Below, in pieces: positions 39,594 through 56,731 of a DNA stretch of 64,000 nt. The DNA comes from Candidatus Saccharimonadota bacterium (GTDB lineage Bacteria; Patescibacteriota; Saccharimonadia; Saccharimonadales; JAQGHD01). Position 1 is the stretch's first letter; the number at the start of each line of letters is the position of its first letter. The notes under the pieces were generated by a model. That model made no database searches. It was not told the origin of the DNA and worked only from the letters and a program-made list of their open reading frames with translations. Made by a program: the position numbers and the translations under genes. Location: contig JAQGHD010000019.1 of NCBI GenBank assembly GCA_028288965.1, positions 25,202 to 89,201 of the forward strand, read 5' to 3'.

Positions 39594-39914
39594 TTACGCC
39601 GCCGTTCTGGATGCCTGCGATCTCGCAGCATGCCACAAGAAATAGGCAAGCGCGGCGAAGATCACACCCAGGATGTTGCGCCAGGTGATTGACCGGAAGA
39701 ATGCCCAAAGCAGGAGCATGGCCGAAGCGAAGTAGAGCACGCAGGTAGCCAGCGCATTCTTCGTCAGTTCGTACGTCTCGTACCCAGCGATCGCGACGAC
39801 CACGGCAAAGAGCACGACGAAAAGTGTGCCGGCGTTGTGGCCAGAAACCAGTTGGTGCACGCTGATGAGGCCGGCGACCAAGGCGGCGATGTAGGTAATG
39901 AACTTGGGACTCAT
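39594..39914 (-). CDS. Small membrane protein (GC-rich segment)
   Basis: 106 aa, 3 hydrophobic helices; local GC content is clearly above that of the flanks. Confidence 0.4.
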   Translation of the reverse strand: MSPKFITYIAALVAGLISVHQLVSGHNAGTLFVVLFAVVVAIAGYETYELTKNALATCVLYFASAMLLLWAFFRSITWRNILGVIFAALAYFLWHAARSQASRTAA

Positions 39915-39939
39915 AACATGTCTCCTTGGTAGGGAACGA

Positions 39940-40248
39940 TCAGCGGCCGGAAGGCCGGACAGGTTGGCGAAGCAGACGACGCTGGTCGCGCACGCGGTTG
40001 CGGTGATCGAGATCGAGTGCCAGCCACATGATGACTGCCATGCCTAGGGCAATGGCTGCGATCGAGGCAGGCCTGAGCACGATGCTGTGAGGTTGGTGAT
40101 CGGCCAGGGCCGAAGCAATCTCGCAGAAGGCCGCGGGCAACAGCAAGCTGAGGCCGGTACGCCGCTTGTTCAGTTTGACGATGCAGACCCATGCCAGAGC
40201 AGCAAATGGGATGGCCAAAACAGCAAAGGCGGTACTGTCACTCATGAA
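39940..40248 (-). CDS. Small membrane protein (GC-rich segment; start at internal Met of the 39940..40335 ORF)
   Basis: MSDSTAFAVLAIPFAALAWVCIV...; hydrophobic. Confidence 0.35.
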   Translation of the reverse strand, partial: FMSDSTAFAVLAIPFAALAWVCIVKLNKRRTGLSLLLPAAFCEIASALADHQPHSIVLRPASIAAIALGMAVIMWLALDLDHRNRVRDQRRLLRQPVRPSGR

Positions 40249-40551
40249 TGAGCACTTCCTTTCCGGTTGGTGTAACAGGGAACTTGTGAAGGTTCTTTGG
40301 AGCAACTGCTCGACAAAGTATAGATATAATGGCATAAAATACTAAAAATATCAATGTTTGGGTGAGGCGACTATACCATGGCAGCAAGTAGACTACGGGC
40401 TTACTATGCCCACATTTTTTATAAGTTGTGCCGAAAATCACAAAGCTTATGCCAATTAGTTCACAGCTATTTTGCTTATGCTGTGGAAAGATTAAGACGG
40501 CTTATGCTTGCTATTCGGAGAAAAGAGGATAAAGATGTGGGGGAGAAAAGC

Positions 40552-40986
40552 ATGAATTCAATCAGTGCGTATGACGTCGCTAACGTCTTTGCTAAGCTGA
40601 CAGATATTGATTCTGGAGAGGTTTTAACGAACCTAAAAATCCAGAAGCTTGTTTACTACGCCCAAGGTTTTCACCTTGCAATGTTTGATAAGCCTCTTTT
40701 TAACGACCCTATTGTTGCGTGGGAGCATGGCCCTGTTGTTGAAGATTTGTACCACAAGCTAAAGGAGCATAAGTCATCACCAGTAATGATAGCTGGCGCA
40801 ATCAACAAAGACATCTCCACTGAACAAATTGAACTCCTTGTAGAGGTCTACGATGTTTACGGTCAGTTTTCAGCATGGAAACTCAGAGACATGACCCATA
40901 ACGAAACTCCTTGGGCAACAACACCAAAAGGTTACGTGATTACTCACGCTAAACTCAAAACATACTTCAAGAATCAGCTCCAGTAA
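40552..40986 (+). CDS. Panacea-domain (DUF4065) protein, antitoxin-like
   Basis: KIQKLVYYAQGFHLAMFDKPLFNDPIVAWEHGPVVEDLY is the hallmark block of the Panacea/SocA-like domain; strong SD GGGGGAG upstream. The ORF-track start at 40378 is probably too far upstream. Confidence 0.6.
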   Translation: MNSISAYDVANVFAKLTDIDSGEVLTNLKIQKLVYYAQGFHLAMFDKPLFNDPIVAWEHGPVVEDLYHKLKEHKSSPVMIAGAINKDISTEQIELLVEVYDVYGQFSAWKLRDMTHNETPWATTPKGYVITHAKLKTYFKNQLQ

Positions 40987-41420
40987 TGGATAGACGGCAT
41001 CCGCCTAAGCCGAAGAAAATGAAGGGCGTTTCGTTCAATCAGTCTCAAGTTAGAGTAGCTGAGTCCGCTAGTGCGCATAAGTCTGACCACCCAATATTTT
41101 GTTTGAGATATTTAGTAAATGGATACGACCTAGAGAAATGTGATAAAGAGCAAGCACACTTCTTCGTGAAGAAACTAGCAAATATGGCTCAATTATCATG
41201 GACAGCATTATTGCTTGGTGACCATAAAAGTGGGCTTGGTTTTGAGCCATTACCCAAGGACCAAATAAAAGCCCCATTGCCTGCAATTGTGACCAAGGAT
41301 ATAACTAGTATGCAAGTTATAAGATTTAAGCGTGACTACAGAATTATAGGTTTCAGGAGTGACGATACCTATAGAATTACACATATAGAGTTAGACAGGA
41401 GTGCTTATGACCACGGTTGA
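40986..41420 (+). CDS. Hypothetical protein, candidate toxin partner (C-terminus faintly RelE/ParE-like)
   Basis: Start overlaps the upstream stop (TAATGG), so co-transcribed with the Panacea gene; C-terminal RIIGFRSDDTYRITHIELDRSAY loosely resembles the RelE/ParE RxIY..d....i.i..HRxdxY end. Confidence 0.3.
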   Translation: MDRRHPPKPKKMKGVSFNQSQVRVAESASAHKSDHPIFCLRYLVNGYDLEKCDKEQAHFFVKKLANMAQLSWTALLLGDHKSGLGFEPLPKDQIKAPLPAIVTKDITSMQVIRFKRDYRIIGFRSDDTYRITHIELDRSAYDHG

Positions 41421-41462: not shown

Positions 41463-41711
41463 CTAATCAAACGTGCTTCCCAGCCCGTCCCAAAAGAACA
41501 AGGTAAATCGGTACAGTCCTGAAGTTATAATAAAAACAAAACTGGTTAAGGTAAGACTCTGTAGGTACTTCGGGCTAACGGCGTGATGAGTGCCATCTAT
41601 TGACCGCTTTAGTTGGCTCCAAAAGCCCTCGATGGTGTTGGTGTGGACGTTGCCACGTATATATTCAAGCGTTGAATGATTAACCGTTGTGTGGTTGCAG
41701 CCCGCTTGCAT
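41463..41711 (-). pseudogene. IS1595-family transposase remnant (C-terminal fragment only)
   Basis: NTIEGFWSQLKRSIDGTHHAVSPKYLQ is the conserved C-terminal block of IS1595-family DDE transposases; no N-terminal catalytic region is present upstream. Confidence 0.55.
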
Positions 41712-41725
41712 TCAGAAAAATGATT

Positions 41726-41800
41726 CGCTTTCGCTCTTTTGAGCTCATCAGTATGAATACACATTCATAAAACGAAAACGACAAATAGACAGAGATAAAG
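41726..41800. repeat. ~75-bp direct repeat, copy 1 (CGCTTTCGCTCTTTTGAGCTCATCAGTATGAATACACATTCATAAA...)
   Basis: Near-identical to 42794..42868. The two copies flank a ~1-kb GC-rich segment. Confidence 0.8.
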
Positions 41801-41900: not shown

Positions 41901-42566
41901 TCAGTTGGCGTCCTGCACAATAAACCCAAACGTCAGGTCATCTTGGTCGCGGAGGTAAGGGAACAGACCCACGTAGGAGGTGCTCAAGCGCCCGGCCGCG
42001 ATCTTGCTGATGACGCTTTCCAGGTGCTGTTTTGCCCGATCTACGTCTGTAACGCGCGTGTCGATGTCCAAGGCTGCTGCCCGGAGTTCGAGCACGTAGC
42101 CCTTGACACCGTCTAGGTCTGTCAATTCGATGGCTACTTGCCTGGTTGCGTCAGCGAAAGCCTGCTGGTCCATGATCTGTTTGGTGATGTGGCTCATTGG
42201 CGTGAACCTTGCAAGGTTGCTGTTGAAGGTGATGATCACCCGGCGGAATGGCCATTCTGTCTGCGGTGTTGCGAGAACACGCTTGTCTCCACGCAAGGGG
42301 AACAAGTCCAACAGATTCTGGGTCGCCCAATCGATGGTAACCTGAACCCACTCTGCAACGGCAGCTGAATTCGTGACGTTGTCACGATACTCAACCGACA
42401 TGTCAAAACGGTTGATGTTGCAGCCAAAGACGCCGTCATGTTGCATAATGCGACCCCTAAGGGGCAGCACTGCATCGCGGTGATCCTCTGAGTTAAAGGT
42501 GCCTGTCTCTTCGTTGATTCCGGTTATAGCCGTATTGAATTCGAACGTGAGAGTCTGATTGGTCAT
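41901..42566 (-). CDS. Hypothetical protein (221 aa, soluble), GC-rich foreign-looking gene
   Basis: SD AGGAG 7 nt before ATG; high GC and GC3 versus the flanks; no recognisable motif. Confidence 0.45.
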   Translation of the reverse strand: MTNQTLTFEFNTAITGINEETGTFNSEDHRDAVLPLRGRIMQHDGVFGCNINRFDMSVEYRDNVTNSAAVAEWVQVTIDWATQNLLDLFPLRGDKRVLATPQTEWPFRRVIITFNSNLARFTPMSHITKQIMDQQAFADATRQVAIELTDLDGVKGYVLELRAAALDIDTRVTDVDRAKQHLESVISKIAAGRLSTSYVGLFPYLRDQDDLTFGFIVQDAN

Positions 42567-42633
42567 GTTGGCTCCTGCTTCAACTCACCTGACTGTTTGT
42601 CCCAACTGACGTTGGCGCGTATCCATAATGAAC

Positions 42634-42778
42634 ACACAAAGTGAGATACCAAGACGCATGGGTGTCCTAGTAACTCACTTTGTGTTTCTGTCTATTTGTC
42701 AAATAACACCTTTGGAACCCATTGGCTCAACAAAAGCAAACATTATATTACCATATAATCATAAAAAAGTCCACAATC
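42634..42778 (-). promoter_or_regulatory. Conserved leader module copy 1 (putative promoter TGGACT-17-TAATAT, conserved 45-nt block, 11-bp hairpin) upstream of 41901..42566
   Basis: Shares a ~150-nt architecture with 43430..43580: hairpin CACAAAGTGAG/CTCACTTTGTG plus conserved TTGTCAAATAACACCTTTGGAACC.ATTGGCTCAACAAAAGCAA plus AAAAGTCCACA. Confidence 0.5.
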
Positions 42779-42793
42779 TGTTTGGACGGTTAC

Positions 42794-42868
42794 CGCTTTC
42801 GCTCTTTTGAGCTCATCAGTATGAATACACATTCATAAAGCAGAAATGACGACCAGACAGGAGTTTAG
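42794..42868. repeat. ~75-bp direct repeat, copy 2
   Basis: See copy 1. Confidence 0.8.
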
Positions 42869-42946
42869 GGTAGAGGGATGACCACAAGGGTCAAACGTCT
42901 AGTTTCCTAAACTGCTCCCTGATGGTCATTTTTGCGCGCGATAACG

Positions 42947-43378
42947 CTATCCGTTATCGCACAAGCGTGGGGTCTGTTGAGACGCCGGCAGCTTGTTGAA
43001 ACTGAGGATGTTCTTGAACGACGAGAAGAGCGGCACACGCCAACCCTTGATTTGCACGCTGTACGTCGTCTCGGGCTGGATCTTGCCGTAGGCGTCGGCA
43101 GTGTTAAACCGTGTCTTGCCGAACAGCGAGTCCTTCATGACAAACGTGCCACCACTGGTGTAGATGCGGTATTCGCCGCCGTTTTGGGTAGCTACGCGCT
43201 CCTTGCTGCACACCGTCAGCACGCGAGTGCTGATGTGGTTGTAGTTGTGGAAGATGGCAGAGATGCCGACTACGAGGGCCAAAACGACCGCCGCAATGGC
43301 AACTGCACAACCCGCGCCCTGGAAATTCTCTCGACGACGAGCCCGATACTGGTTCGCATCACTAGTTCTCATGGACAT
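42947..43378 (-). CDS. Hypothetical membrane-anchored protein (143 aa; basic N-terminus, one TM, extracytoplasmic domain), GC-rich
   Basis: Very strong SD (GGAGAGGAGAAAGGAAG); TM VAIAAVVLALVVGISAI; the opposite-strand ORF 42932..43507 is low-complexity antisense. Confidence 0.45.
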   Translation of the reverse strand: MSMRTSDANQYRARRRENFQGAGCAVAIAAVVLALVVGISAIFHNYNHISTRVLTVCSKERVATQNGGEYRIYTSGGTFVMKDSLFGKTRFNTADAYGKIQPETTYSVQIKGWRVPLFSSFKNILSFNKLPASQQTPRLCDNG

Positions 43379-43429
43379 AGGGTCTTCCTTTCTCCTCTCC
43401 TCGGCATACAGCCTAAGGTGTTTATCCTA

Positions 43430-43580
43430 AACACACAAGGTGAGGAACAAAAGTACAATAATTATACGTTTGGTGCTCACCTTGTGCTTTGTCTGGTTGT
43501 CAAATAACACCTTTGGAACCGATTGGCTCAACAAAAGCAATGTAGATAATAACATAAAAATGCGCAAAAGTCCACATCTC
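43430..43580 (-). promoter_or_regulatory. Conserved leader module copy 2 upstream of 42947..43378
   Basis: Hairpin CACAAGGTGAG/CTCACCTTGTG (compensatory A-T to G-C change relative to copy 1) plus the same conserved block. Confidence 0.5.
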
Positions 43581-54435: not shown

Positions 54436-54494
54436 GTGAAATGAAAGACATCTTTGCCGATAAATTTTGTCGGCTTAGATGTCTTTCATTTCAC
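54436..54494. repeat. Perfect 17-bp inverted repeat (GTGAAATGAAAGACATC / GATGTCTTTCATTTCAC) with nested 5-bp hairpin in the 25-nt spacer
   Basis: Read directly; lies ~95 nt upstream of the first GC-rich island gene; no flanking T-run. Confidence 0.7.
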
Positions 54495-54590
54495 AATGGA
54501 AATCCTGTGCTTGCCTGTATGTGGAGCAAAGGAGAAAGGCAATCTGCAATATCCCTCAACGCATACCAGCGCAATAGGAAGGAATCGGAA

Positions 54591-55217
54591 ATGCCCATCA
54601 ATGTCACTGACATTGTCACCGCCGCAGCCGACGTCGAGAAGGACGAGGACAAGGCCGCCCAGAAGCGCATCGCCGCCATCATCAATAGGATGGTTCGCGT
54701 GTACAACTCGGGTGGCAATACCACGGTCTTCGATTCGGTCGAGCTGCTCCTCGGCATCAAGCCGGGCGGCGTCAAGGAGCTCCTCACCCAATTGGGCATT
54801 ACCCTGCCCAACGAGGACGAACCCGACAACACACCGCGTGCGTTAAACGCACCCGGAGCCTCACGCAGGAACATCCACAACTGGGTGGACGTGTACGAGA
54901 ACCGAGAGGGCACTGTCAAGTCGACCGATGTCGACAAGGTCCTGGCCGGCGACATGGTGAAGATCAACGAGTACAACCTCGCACCGATCTTCGCTAATGA
55001 CGACCCGAGCCAGATCGTCGGCTACTACAAGCGACCCGTGCCCGCTCCGGCGCCTGCCCCGACCAACGACACCGTCGTGGTTGCCGGCAAGCGTGGGAAG
55101 CCCGACACGGTCATCAACAGAGTTGACTACCAAGCGAACTCGGCTGCATACCGCGTGCTCGAGCACCACCCCGATGGCACGCCGAAGCGAGTCGCCAAGT
55201 TGCCCCGAGTTCTCTAG
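54591..55217 (+). CDS. Hypothetical protein (GC-rich island gene 1)
   Basis: SD AGGAAGGAAT upstream of the MPINVT start; GC3-rich codon usage unlike the flanks; the 54441 start in the ORF track would run through the inverted repeat. Confidence 0.45.
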   Translation: MPINVTDIVTAAADVEKDEDKAAQKRIAAIINRMVRVYNSGGNTTVFDSVELLLGIKPGGVKELLTQLGITLPNEDEPDNTPRALNAPGASRRNIHNWVDVYENREGTVKSTDVDKVLAGDMVKINEYNLAPIFANDDPSQIVGYYKRPVPAPAPAPTNDTVVVAGKRGKPDTVINRVDYQANSAAYRVLEHHPDGTPKRVAKLPRVL

Positions 55218-55303
55218 GAACCAAGACGAAAGCCCGGAAAGCTAACTAAATTTCCGAGGGGGCGTTCCGAACGAGCGGACATGCTTTGGCATGAGAGAAT
55301 GTC

Positions 55304-56731
55304 ATGTTCTCTACGTCCACGAAGTCGTACAGTTCACCTAAGACAGGAGGTGACCAGTTGGTCATCAAGTTACTACTGCTGATCATGGCCGCCGCATCCC
55401 TCGCGCTTGTGGTGGTTAGCTGGAAAAGAAAGGTGGCCATTGGTCGCCGCTACCACTACTTCAGGGCACTGCCGATGACTGCGGCCGCCGCTGTGGTGTT
55501 GGTAATCGCTGCCACACTTGCGTGGTCAAACACGCACGCGGACGGCCAGACGGTTACTACCACGACCACTACGTCGTCGACCACGGTTGGTCTCCCGACC
55601 AACGGCTCCATCCCCAAGGGCGGAGTCACCATCAAGGTCAGCGACGAGGTGATCAAGAAGATCACAGTCCGTACGGCATCGTTCGACTGCCCGACGCTGG
55701 TTACCAGCCACGGCGGAAGCACGATGGCCTCACTCAACGAGACGGTTGTTGTCCCCAGCGTGAACGTGTACAAGGATGTTTCGACCAGCCGCAAGGCCTC
55801 GGACAACCTCGACACGCCACTGCCGGGCAAGACGCCGACTCAGCAACGGGACTACCTGCGAGCCCGCATCTGCGAGAACGCCCTTTTGGGTGGCTCGTGG
55901 GCGAACATGCTCGCTGGGTTGAACTTCGACGGCATTTCGGTGCTGAAGCAAAACCCATGGTTGCGCCAGTTCGCTGACGTGTCCAAGGTGAACGATCGAG
56001 CGGAGTACTACTTTCCGTTCATCAACATCAAGTCCCCCGAAAAGACGCTGACCGATGCCCAGAAGGTCCTCGCCGTCCGGCGCAACATTGCCTGGCAGCA
56101 AGAGGCCGAGCTCATCGGGACGCTCATCGGGCAGTTCCAGATCGTTGGTGACCAAGCGCCTACAAGCGTGCGGAACTGGCATCTGGCAATGCACGGAAGT
56201 GAGGTCAAGGCCCACGCGTTCCCCGAAGTCGGGCTCAACCCCCTCCAGGAGAACCGTCCGGCGTTGGTAATTCGGTTGATTGACAAGGGCGCTTGCGCTC
56301 CTTGGCTCGCAATCGGTGCCAACCTGGAAGACAAGCGACCGGAAGTCTTCATGGAAGCTCCGAAGCTCGTCTGCCAACGGCCTAAGCCCAAGCCGCGTCC
56401 TGGTACGCCTGGTTCGACGAGCCCTCACCGGCCGCCGACACACGGAACGACCACGACCACCCGGCCGGGGACGACCACGACCACTCAGCCGACAACGTCG
56501 ACCACAGTGGTTTGTTCCTCCGGCAAATGCCAGCCACCAAACACAGTTGCACCACCCCCAATAACGGCAGCGCCGTCTACCACGACAACCACGTCACACG
56601 GCGCTGGACAAGGTGGTTCCGGTACTGGTGAGTCGACAAACACGACGACTCCGTCGCCGACGTCTGTACCTTCGGGCACGACGCCGACTTCTACCGCTAC
56701 CGGCGGGGATACTGGGGCTCCGCCTCCGTAA
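55304..56731 (+). CDS. Membrane-anchored secreted protein with T/P-rich C-terminal tail (GC-rich island gene 2)
   Basis: N-terminal TMs, central domain, C-terminal TTTTRPGTTTTTQPTTSTT... mucin-like tail; very GC-rich. Confidence 0.5.
   Translation: MFSTSTKSYSSPKTGGDQLVIKLLLLIMAAASLALVVVSWKRKVAIGRRYHYFRALPMTAAAAVVLVIAATLAWSNTHADGQTVTTTTTTSSTTVGLPTNGSIPKGGVTIKVSDEVIKKITVRTASFDCPTLVTSHGGSTMASLNETVVVPSVNVYKDVSTSRKASDNLDTPLPGKTPTQQRDYLRARICENALLGGSWANMLAGLNFDGISVLKQNPWLRQFADVSKVNDRAEYYFPFINIKSPEKTLTDAQKVLAVRRNIAWQQEAELIGTLIGQFQIVGDQAPTSVRNWHLAMHGSEVKAHAFPEVGLNPLQENRPALVIRLIDKGACAPWLAIGANLEDKRPEVFMEAPKLVCQRPKPKPRPGTPGSTSPHRPPTHGTTTTTRPGTTTTTQPTTSTTVVCSSGKCQPPNTVAPPPITAAPSTTTTTSHGAGQGGSGTGESTNTTTPSPTSVPSGTTPTSTATGGDTGAPPP

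Follow-up and report, generated by a model that had tools for sequence, protein, structure and literature searches.

Hammerhead ribozymes in bacterial genomes flank small non-conserved open reading frames (ORFs), and their role there is an acknowledged open question (PMC6155905). T4-type phages carry PeSL cassettes, in which a promoter and a stem-loop flank variable and mostly unknown ORFs (PMC2839356, PMC4122927). Here we analysed a stretch of 64,000 nucleotides from contig JAQGHD010000019.1 of a Candidatus Saccharimonadota bacterium (hereafter the window), in which two adjacent minus-strand genes encoding proteins of 221 and 143 amino acids are each framed by a predicted promoter, a structured leader and a hammerhead. 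The original prediction for these genes was a horizontally acquired two-component module, perhaps a defence or toxin system. In the reading we prefer, to which we give a probability of roughly 55%, the two ORFs are instead the cargo of adjacent and independent copies of a monocistronic expression cassette found in a subgroup of Saccharimonadales, where the hammerhead would make the mRNA 3' end and insulate the unit, and pairing between a 5' box and a 3' box would seal the ends.

Like the hammerheads of bacterial genomes reviewed in PMC6155905, which draws on surveys by several laboratories, those of the window are of type III, intergenic and co-oriented with small ORFs of unknown function, and both sets share sporadic arrays and a loose link to phage-like genes; hammerheads beside such ORFs are already known. 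The ribozyme of the window differs in its setting, a fixed unit that also comprises a conserved promoter, a leader of three parts and a box complementary to this leader, and in belonging to a family concentrated in Patescibacteria, with stem II GCUC-AAAA-GAGC or GUCC-AAAA-GGAC and loop I UGUGU. It shares with the Rfam family Hammerhead_3 (RF00008) the core, the three-helix topology, the capped stems I and II and the open stem III, but its stem II is shorter than in the consensus (4 bp with a 4-nt loop). In PeSLs, as here, the conserved flanks are thought to let unrelated genes swap by recombination. They are, however, composites of terminator and promoter in phage hyperplastic regions, with neither a ribozyme nor 5'-3' pairing, whereas the window units are chromosomal units of a Candidate Phyla Radiation (CPR) bacterium for which we only infer recombination at the flanks.

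Integron cassettes and morons are likewise single-gene units of foreign composition standing in tandem at a variable spot, and morons also have their own promoter and 3' end signal per unit. An integron gene cassette is a promoterless ORF with a local attC hairpin, accompanied by IntI, attI and Pc nearby. Around the window units no attC, integrase, attI or shared Pc was found within ~8 kb, each unit has its own promoter, the 3' box pairs across the ORF and, in contrast to integron cassettes and morons, the 3' signal is a ribozyme and not a terminator. In the searchable literature we found no promoter-leader-box-ribozyme unit, no pairing of leader and tail at a cleavage site, no Rfam-missed ribozyme family of Patescibacteria and no protein family linked to such cassettes; a literature search on hammerheads in CPR, Patescibacteria or Saccharibacteria likewise returned no paper linking the two.

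Architecture and predicted end pairing of the cassettes

Both ORFs are present where they had been predicted (Table 1), with purine-rich Shine-Dalgarno (SD) sites in line with the strong ones noted for them, GAGGAGAGGAG 5' of the ATG at 43378 for the 143-aa ORF and AGGAG at 42576-42572, 5 nt before the ATG at 42566, for the 221-aa ORF. Their GC content at third codon positions (GC3) is 0.74 and 0.67, respectively, clearly above the mean of 0.49 (standard deviation 0.10) of the 44 window ORFs that do not overlap and have 150 aa or more, as claimed, yet not unique. The leader element said to be common to both genes was borne out by an 87-nt direct repeat (42689-42775 and 43490-43576, 80% identical), which precedes the long hairpins P2 and contains a 35-nt core that occurs exactly twice in the window against 0 times expected by chance. 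A second repeat, which had escaped the original prediction, lies 3' of each ORF (67 nt, 90% identical, 41726-41792 and 42794-42860) and contains a hammerhead ribozyme in each copy. Since neither gene shares its promoter, leader or 3' ribozyme with the other, the locus consists of two monocistronic units arranged head to tail, cassette A with the 143-aa ORF and cassette B with the 221-aa ORF; they abut, promoter B starting 15 nt past the end of hammerhead A. A homolog of the 143-aa protein was present in 0 of 9 other loci with a 221-aa homolog, and none of 3 loci with a 143-aa homolog contained the 221-aa protein. In our reading the two cargo proteins would act independently of each other.

Through relatives of the 221-aa protein and a leader scan of public data we identified 14 cassettes on Saccharimonadales-like contigs, with a common promoter, leader, boxes and hammerhead and with six unrelated cargo families; a fifteenth locus (L163) is partial, and a metagenome scan with the leader pattern returned four contigs only. 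Each unit runs from the promoter through a hairpin (P1), the 5' box, hairpin P2, a spacer, the SD site and a GC-rich ORF to the 3' box and the hammerhead. The promoter is of sigma-70 type (-35 TTGACT or TGGACT, a 17-nt spacer and a -10 like TATTAT, often with an upstream TG). P1 varies in sequence and is followed by the conserved single-stranded stretch UUAUUUGACAAnnAGACAG, and the 3' box CUGUCUnnUUGUCA has the hammerhead 9-10 nt further on. The cargo, of 131-239 aa, has a GC3 of 0.67-0.85 in every cassette against a locus GC of 0.47-0.55. It comprises a 221-family homolog of 41% identity directly after tRNA-Asp (L120), further members of this family with identities down to 24% (L155, L158, L159, L161, L162, L164 and L165), an acyltransferase (PF01553, E 7.5e-24; L121), a 131-aa phrog_26039 protein (L122 and L124), a Cys-rich 140-aa ORF (L123) and an unrelated acidic 157-aa ORF (L004), whose neighbour we take from its translation, read by eye, to be prolyl-tRNA synthetase-like. 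The cassettes occupy unrelated chromosomal sites in different genomes. Neither leader nor hammerhead was found in the phage collection or the plasmid collection, and the two matches of viral contigs to the pattern of 3' box plus hammerhead were both chance matches inside coding regions.

In each cassette the 14-nt 3' box directly ahead of the ribozyme and the 14-nt 5' box are reverse complements, and over 14 cassettes the paired share of the cells is 91.8%, compared with 29-43% for slid partners. Compensatory changes are present in 5 of the 14 box pairs, and the covariation score was reached by 0 of 500 shuffles. The variable dinucleotide of the 5' box is CC in cassette A, faced by GG in the 3' box, and AU in cassette B, where it covaries with AU; in L158, AAACAG faces CUGUUU, and in L161, UGACAAUUAGGU faces ACCUAAUUGUCA. 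The G.U pairs between the boxes arise only when the sense strand is read, and the other strand would give A-C mismatches, an asymmetry that speaks for an RNA structure rather than a repeat in DNA. The hairpin P2 that follows the 5' box has a consensus fold of 24 pairs, 15 of them with compensatory changes.

Table 1. Features of the two cassettes and of their immediate neighbours in the window
Feature	Position	Strand	Details and basis
Cassette A promoter	43546-43574	minus	-35 TGGACT (43574-43569), 17-nt spacer, TG-extended -10 TATTAT (43551-43546); promoter scan
Cassette A hairpin P1 (GCUUUUG...CAAAGG)	43509-43538	minus	Whole-mRNA minimum-free-energy fold; near the predicted mRNA 5' end
Cassette A 5' box UGACAACCAGACAA	43489-43502	minus	Complementary to 42847-42860 (12/14 pairs); covariation over 14 cassettes
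Cassette A hairpin P2, about 24 bp	43434-43486	minus	Inverted repeat I1, 26-nt arms, 85% complementary
143-aa ORF	42947-43378	minus	Cassette A cargo; ORF confirmed
Cassette A 3' box CUGUCUGGUCGUCA	42847-42860	minus	Read from the sequence; pairs with the cassette A 5' box
Cassette A type III hammerhead	42789-42847	minus	RF00008 29.8 bits, E 9e-4; family model R1 72.5 bits; full catalytic core
Cassette B promoter	42745-42773	minus	-35 TGGACT (42773-42768), 17-nt spacer, -10 TAATAT (42750-42745)
Cassette B hairpin P1	42708-42737	minus	Whole-mRNA fold
Cassette B 5' box UGACAAAUAGACAG	42688-42701	minus	Complementary to 41779-41792 (13 Watson-Crick pairs and one G.U)
Cassette B hairpin P2	42634-42685	minus	Inverted repeat I2; consensus fold
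221-aa ORF	41901-42566	minus	Cassette B cargo; ORF confirmed
Cassette B 3' box CUGUCUAUUUGUCG	41779-41792	minus	Sequence and box covariation
Cassette B type III hammerhead	41721-41779	minus	RF00008 23.7 bits; R1 72.8 bits; stem III covaries with copy A
IS1595-family transposase remnant	41463-41711	minus	PF12762 E 6e-14; only profile positions 93-142 of 153 left
SocA/Panacea antitoxin gene and partner ORF	40378-41420	plus	PF13274 E 6e-23; NCBIfam SocA_antitoxin E 5e-17

If this arrangement works as proposed, the hammerhead would cut the nascent RNA and give it a fixed 3' terminus that bears a 2',3'-cyclic phosphate, with no intrinsic terminator needed, and the same cut would sever the message from any RNA that reads through to the following unit. 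Pairing of the 3' box with the 5' box would close the mRNA as a panhandle, which would guard it at either end against exonucleases and might also control translation or the folding of the ribozyme. Where the ribozyme of other CPR lineages follows a local hairpin, that hairpin would serve the same 3'-end role. Cargo might be exchanged by recombination at the conserved flanks, with the PeSL cassettes as the nearest precedent (PMC4122927). As the predicted cleavage site lies 9-10 nt past a helix, be it the pairing with the 5' UTR or, in other CPR lineages, a local hairpin, the cassettes suggest a testable role for the ribozyme in forming a protected mRNA 3' end and in insulating neighbouring units. 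They further suggest a route by which genome-reduced epibionts may slot phage-like foreign genes into a ready expression platform, and the compact module of promoter, leader and ribozyme could become a genetic tool for Saccharibacteria.

The position of promoter A is conserved in the leader alignment of the other cassettes, with the transcription start inferred. Promoter B was placed by alignment to promoter A and by reading of the sequence, with 8/12 consensus matches, just below the cut-off of the scan. A comparison by eye placed a hairpin of different sequence at the P1 position of the other cassettes. Both leader repeats also contain promoter-like sites on the plus strand (42722-42749 and 43523-43550; TTGGCT, a 16-nt spacer and TATATT or GATAAT), of which the latter points to murI and may be its promoter, and the former would drive an antisense transcript across cassette A. 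A candidate third hairpin P3, with a purine-rich AGGA-like loop and overlapping the 3' end of P2, was seen in 13 cassette leaders, for example at 43415-43440 and 42610-42640 (minus strand); it was set aside, as RNAalifold gave 8 pairs with a covariation term near zero. The idea of the leader as a ribozyme or riboswitch was likewise dropped, its Rfam matches being at chance level only (RAGATH-10 with E 2.6 and some miRNA models).

The hammerhead ribozyme family

A type III hammerhead has the core elements CUGANGA and GAAA, pairs A15.1 with U16.1 and has any base except G at position 17. Both window copies carry CUGAUGA...GAAA with U16.1 and U17, within a stem I of UAUGAAU-GUGU-AUUCAUA, a stem II of GCUC-AAAA-GAGC and an open stem III. 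The sequence of stem III differs between copies A and B yet is paired in both (CUGC/GCGG and UUCGU/GCGAA), and in copy A the three-way junction is the minimum-free-energy fold. Cleavage is predicted between 42838 (U17) and 42837 in copy A and between 41770 (U17) and 41769 in copy B, 1068 nt downstream of the former site, and from the sequence both copies are expected to yield 2',3'-cyclic phosphate and 5'-OH ends.

These two ribozymes belong to a large Patescibacteria family which is brought to light here and which the standard Rfam annotation had missed. The exact 23-nt core was found in >119 stretches of the genome collection, nearly all labelled as Patescibacteria, the labels including Saccharibacteria, Paceibacterota, Nomurabacteria and Uhrbacteria, and in 28 IMG/VR contigs; at some loci there are two or three copies with spacings of 400-1700 nt. 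Among 121 aligned copies, 97.1% of the cells pair in the three-helix topology, against 30-48% in slid controls, with compensatory changes in 7/7 pairs of stem I and 4/5 pairs of stem III and a sum of 505 compensatory cells in these two stems against 146 in shuffles. Stem II was fixed by the search pattern, and relatives found later carry GUCC/GGAC. The NUH rule at the cleavage site holds for 123 of 124 family copies, as do U at position 16.1 (123/124) and a base other than G at position 17 (123/124). A covariance model built from the family alignment found no hammerhead in the window beyond copies A and B.

The family copies are intergenic, mainly between co-oriented small ORFs, and these neighbours are nearly all unrelated, with the largest cluster among 181 ORFs having 8 members. 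A local perfect hairpin of at least 6 bp that ends no more than 6 nt from stem III accompanies 51% of the hammerheads of the wider family, against 12% in shuffles. A helix directly upstream of the cleavage site is the common theme of the cassettes and of the wider CPR family.

Several further arrangements were observed around these ribozymes. In L162 a degenerate hammerhead (3526-3584, plus strand, core CUGACGA, 32.5 bits) lies directly 5' of the promoter of a 221-family cassette, the same layout as in the window, where hammerhead A precedes cassette B. In other Patescibacteria (L042, L061, L071 and L103), two or three hammerheads spaced 700-950 nt apart form arrays with small unrelated ORFs between them; these arrays appear intra-operonic, with no obvious promoter between the units. 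A conserved motif like AAAGTTCTTTGAAAA lies within 30 nt 3' of the ribozyme in 48 of 124 CPR hammerhead copies (loci L001-L119, e.g. L015, L016, L039, L052 and L105), and it may resemble the boxA antitermination sites of rRNA operons; this idea was set aside for the window, as GTTCTTTGAAAA follows many CPR hammerheads and not the window copies. A recurring conserved context was noted at eight loci of other CPR lineages (L008, L011, L032, L051, L060, L065, L073 and L116), where the ribozyme adjoins a protein of ~210-280 aa with what we take by eye to be a P-loop NTPase motif, and in 4 of these 8 its other neighbour is a gene of ~190 aa whose sequence, again read by eye, looks Nudix-like.

Weighing the cassette reading against its alternatives

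Several points weigh against the cassette reading. The scores of both hammerheads (29.8 and 23.7 bits) do not reach the Rfam gathering score of 48.5 for RF00008, which is why standard annotation overlooks them, and both carry U at position 17, found in 31% of the family, and not the commoner C. The covariation of the boxes comes from a small number of independent events (8 cells). In whole-mRNA minimum-free-energy folds the pairing of the boxes appeared in 3/7 and was absent from the other 4/7; the former lends little support, as the folding of RNAs of 700-1000 nt is unreliable. Box pairing is degraded in L162, and L121 retains both boxes with the hammerhead absent. Furthermore, the transcription start, cleavage, 3' end and long-range pairing are all predictions from sequence, and all the sequences are metagenome-derived.

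A more far-reaching version, which we put forward tentatively as rather improbable, takes the cassettes for a new bacterial element, a self-processing and end-pairing mRNA unit that spreads and captures foreign genes in Saccharimonadales, with the 221-aa family supplying its signature protein, an RNA-binding regulator, chaperone or mobilisation factor that would work in trans on the shared leader. Two observations would then make sense, the constant location of the 221-aa family inside a cassette and a conservation that is higher for the RNA elements than for the protein. All nine 221-family relatives with an examined locus, down to 24% identity, do lie in a cassette. Under such a version the Patescibacteria hammerhead family would gain a job, mRNA 3'-end formation and insulation beside a protective helix.

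The boxes and perhaps P2 might alternatively function at the level of DNA, as recombination sites (terminal inverted repeats or single-strand DNA structures) for a recombinase or transposase, with the hammerhead an unrelated neighbour. This would fit with inverted repeats placed precisely around the variable part (P2 and ORF), with swapped cargo between conserved flanks, with cassettes at unrelated genomic sites and once directly after a tRNA gene, and with the truncated IS1595 that the window cassettes abut. However, conservation reaches beyond the boxes to the promoter and P1 upstream and to the hammerhead downstream, the G.U pairs form only in the mRNA-sense orientation, and true terminal repeats are usually conserved and not compensated. 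The surrounding 8 kb contain housekeeping genes as neighbours and neither a recombinase nor an intact transposase, and no target-site duplication was seen at the window cassettes. We therefore consider a DNA-level role unlikely.

The end pairing also recalls the control of hok mRNA, whose hallmark is that its 5' and 3' untranslated regions (UTRs) pair over a long distance (PMC9841398), a feature present here as a predicted 14-bp pairing with compensatory changes. As with the tac/fbi fold-back of hok, the 5'-3' UTR pairing would close and stabilise the full-length mRNA, and it could hold it untranslatable until processing if, as in type I toxin mRNAs, the cargo were harmful. That one cargo is a small single-pass membrane protein and that the cassettes adjoin a toxin-antitoxin pair agree with such a lock. 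On the other hand, the hok product is a toxic peptide of ~50 aa, an antisense RNA belongs to the system, and loss of fbi through 3' trimming activates the mRNA, whereas the cassette cargo is diverse in kind, including an ordinary acyltransferase (PF01553) and soluble proteins, at the lengths given above (131-239 aa), and the hammerhead cut leaves the 3' box attached, so that the pairing is not opened. The SD site lies ~100 nt from the 5' box, a conserved partner that would sequester it was not found, and no antisense RNA gene is evident, with two weak plus-strand promoter-like sites present in the leaders. A hydrophobic toxin of less than ~60 aa with a cis antisense RNA, as in a type I toxin system, was not identified in the cassettes, and a hok-like lock appears improbable to us.

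A unit of ~1 kb with an ORF of ~215 aa recalls retrozymes and Obelisk-type agents, and two hammerheads in direct orientation (1068 nt apart) flank cassette B, with L162 also having a hammerhead-like motif 5' of its promoter, so that an RNA cut at both sites might be circularised or mobilised via RNA. We regard this as very unlikely, as in most cassettes the sole hammerhead is the one at the 3' end, the upstream motif of L162 has the mutated core CUGACGA, no reverse transcriptase lies nearby, and the fold of the 221-aa protein is a tandem ferredoxin, unlike the helical Oblin-1 protein of Obelisks. Hammerheads at both unit ends, as in retrozymes, are confined to cassette B and, with a degenerate upstream copy, L162.

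The two-component module of the original prediction is hardly tenable: although the genes are adjacent, co-oriented and raised in GC3, share a small variable islet with a toxin-antitoxin pair and an insertion sequence (IS) remnant, and combine a membrane protein with a soluble one, a common abortive-infection layout, their homologs never share any of the 12 other loci, which refutes the module on the very ground the prediction had named, and they have separate promoters with a ribozyme between them, in a cassette that elsewhere carries unrelated single genes. Nor did the defence or toxin function find support, since neither protein matches a PADLOC defence model or contains a toxin-like domain. 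What stands of that prediction is horizontal acquisition, given the cargo GC3 above that of the flanks, the relatives of the 143-aa protein in 97 phages and the cassettes at unrelated sites.

Cargo proteins and the surrounding islet

The view that neither protein belongs to a known family holds for the 221-aa protein and fails for the 143-aa protein. The latter starts with a basic N-terminus, has a single hydrophobic helix and ends in a C-terminal outer domain of roughly 95 aa; it matches phrog_301 'secreted protein' over residues 24-129 (E 1.7e-15). Its score against Pfam DUF1523 is 17.8 bits, short of the cut-off of 23, whereas P0004, a relative with 64% identity, passes with 24.6 bits, and we take the protein as a DUF1523-like member of phrog_301. 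Searches with tblastn gave relatives in 97 phage genomes, mostly of actinophages, with Gordonia (38), Vibrio (23) and Mycobacterium (19) as hosts along with Streptomyces and Arthrobacter; one of them is among the early genes of Mycobacterium phage Theia. The nearest metagenome relatives (L156 and L157) lie outside cassettes. Judged by its sequence, the 143-aa protein is a membrane-anchored or exported member of a family common in phages.

The 221-aa protein matched no family in Pfam, NCBIfam, PHROGs or PADLOC and had no relative among the phages searched; its exact sequence is deposited in NCBI under a metagenome-assembled genome of Candidatus Saccharibacteria, as a hypothetical protein. Its family has 88 representatives at 50% clustering, and the family profile matches HMA- and YAM-type ferredoxin-fold domains in PDB. 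The AlphaFold2 model made from a 67-sequence alignment, which replaced an earlier 3-sequence model of too poor quality (predicted local distance difference test score, pLDDT, 57), has a pLDDT of 95.3 and two beta-alpha-beta-beta-alpha-beta domains. Foldseek returned tandem HMA, ACT and RRM pairs with low TM-scores, CopA and ATP7B being among the fold matches. A CxxC motif is absent, and the 67-sequence alignment has no invariant or near-invariant Cys, hence we take the protein to be ferredoxin-like and not a metal-binding member of HMA; the most conserved residues are G45, F89, P90, G153 and P203. The model describes a soluble tandem ferredoxin-fold protein of HMA/ACT/RRM-like type, which probably binds a ligand or RNA.

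The cassettes sit between murI and the IS remnant, within an islet flanked by housekeeping genes, with an ABC transporter, lysyl-phosphatidylglycerol synthase and folD on one side and murI, murD, a Ham1-family gene and response regulators on the other. The toxin-antitoxin-like pair and the IS remnant that had been claimed as neighbours are both there. The partner ORF of the SocA/Panacea gene encodes 144 aa, overlaps it by one base and has weak matches to PADLOC NsnC (E 3e-5) and to the MAG6450 family (E 1e-3), and from their sequences the two probably form a toxin-antitoxin pair with an uncharacterised toxin. The IS1595 remnant starts 12 nt past the end of the cassette B hammerhead, so that its N-terminal part is lost exactly at the end of the cassette array. 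The same islet has two small GC-rich ORFs on the minus strand (39594-40335; 106 and 131 aa, GC3 0.77 and 0.66), hydrophobic and bicistronic, for which no family match, leader or hammerhead was found. Farther away, two adjoining plus-strand ORFs of 258 and 475 aa (54441-56731) have GC3 values of 0.74 and 0.72, on a par with those of the cassette cargo, and may be another foreign segment.

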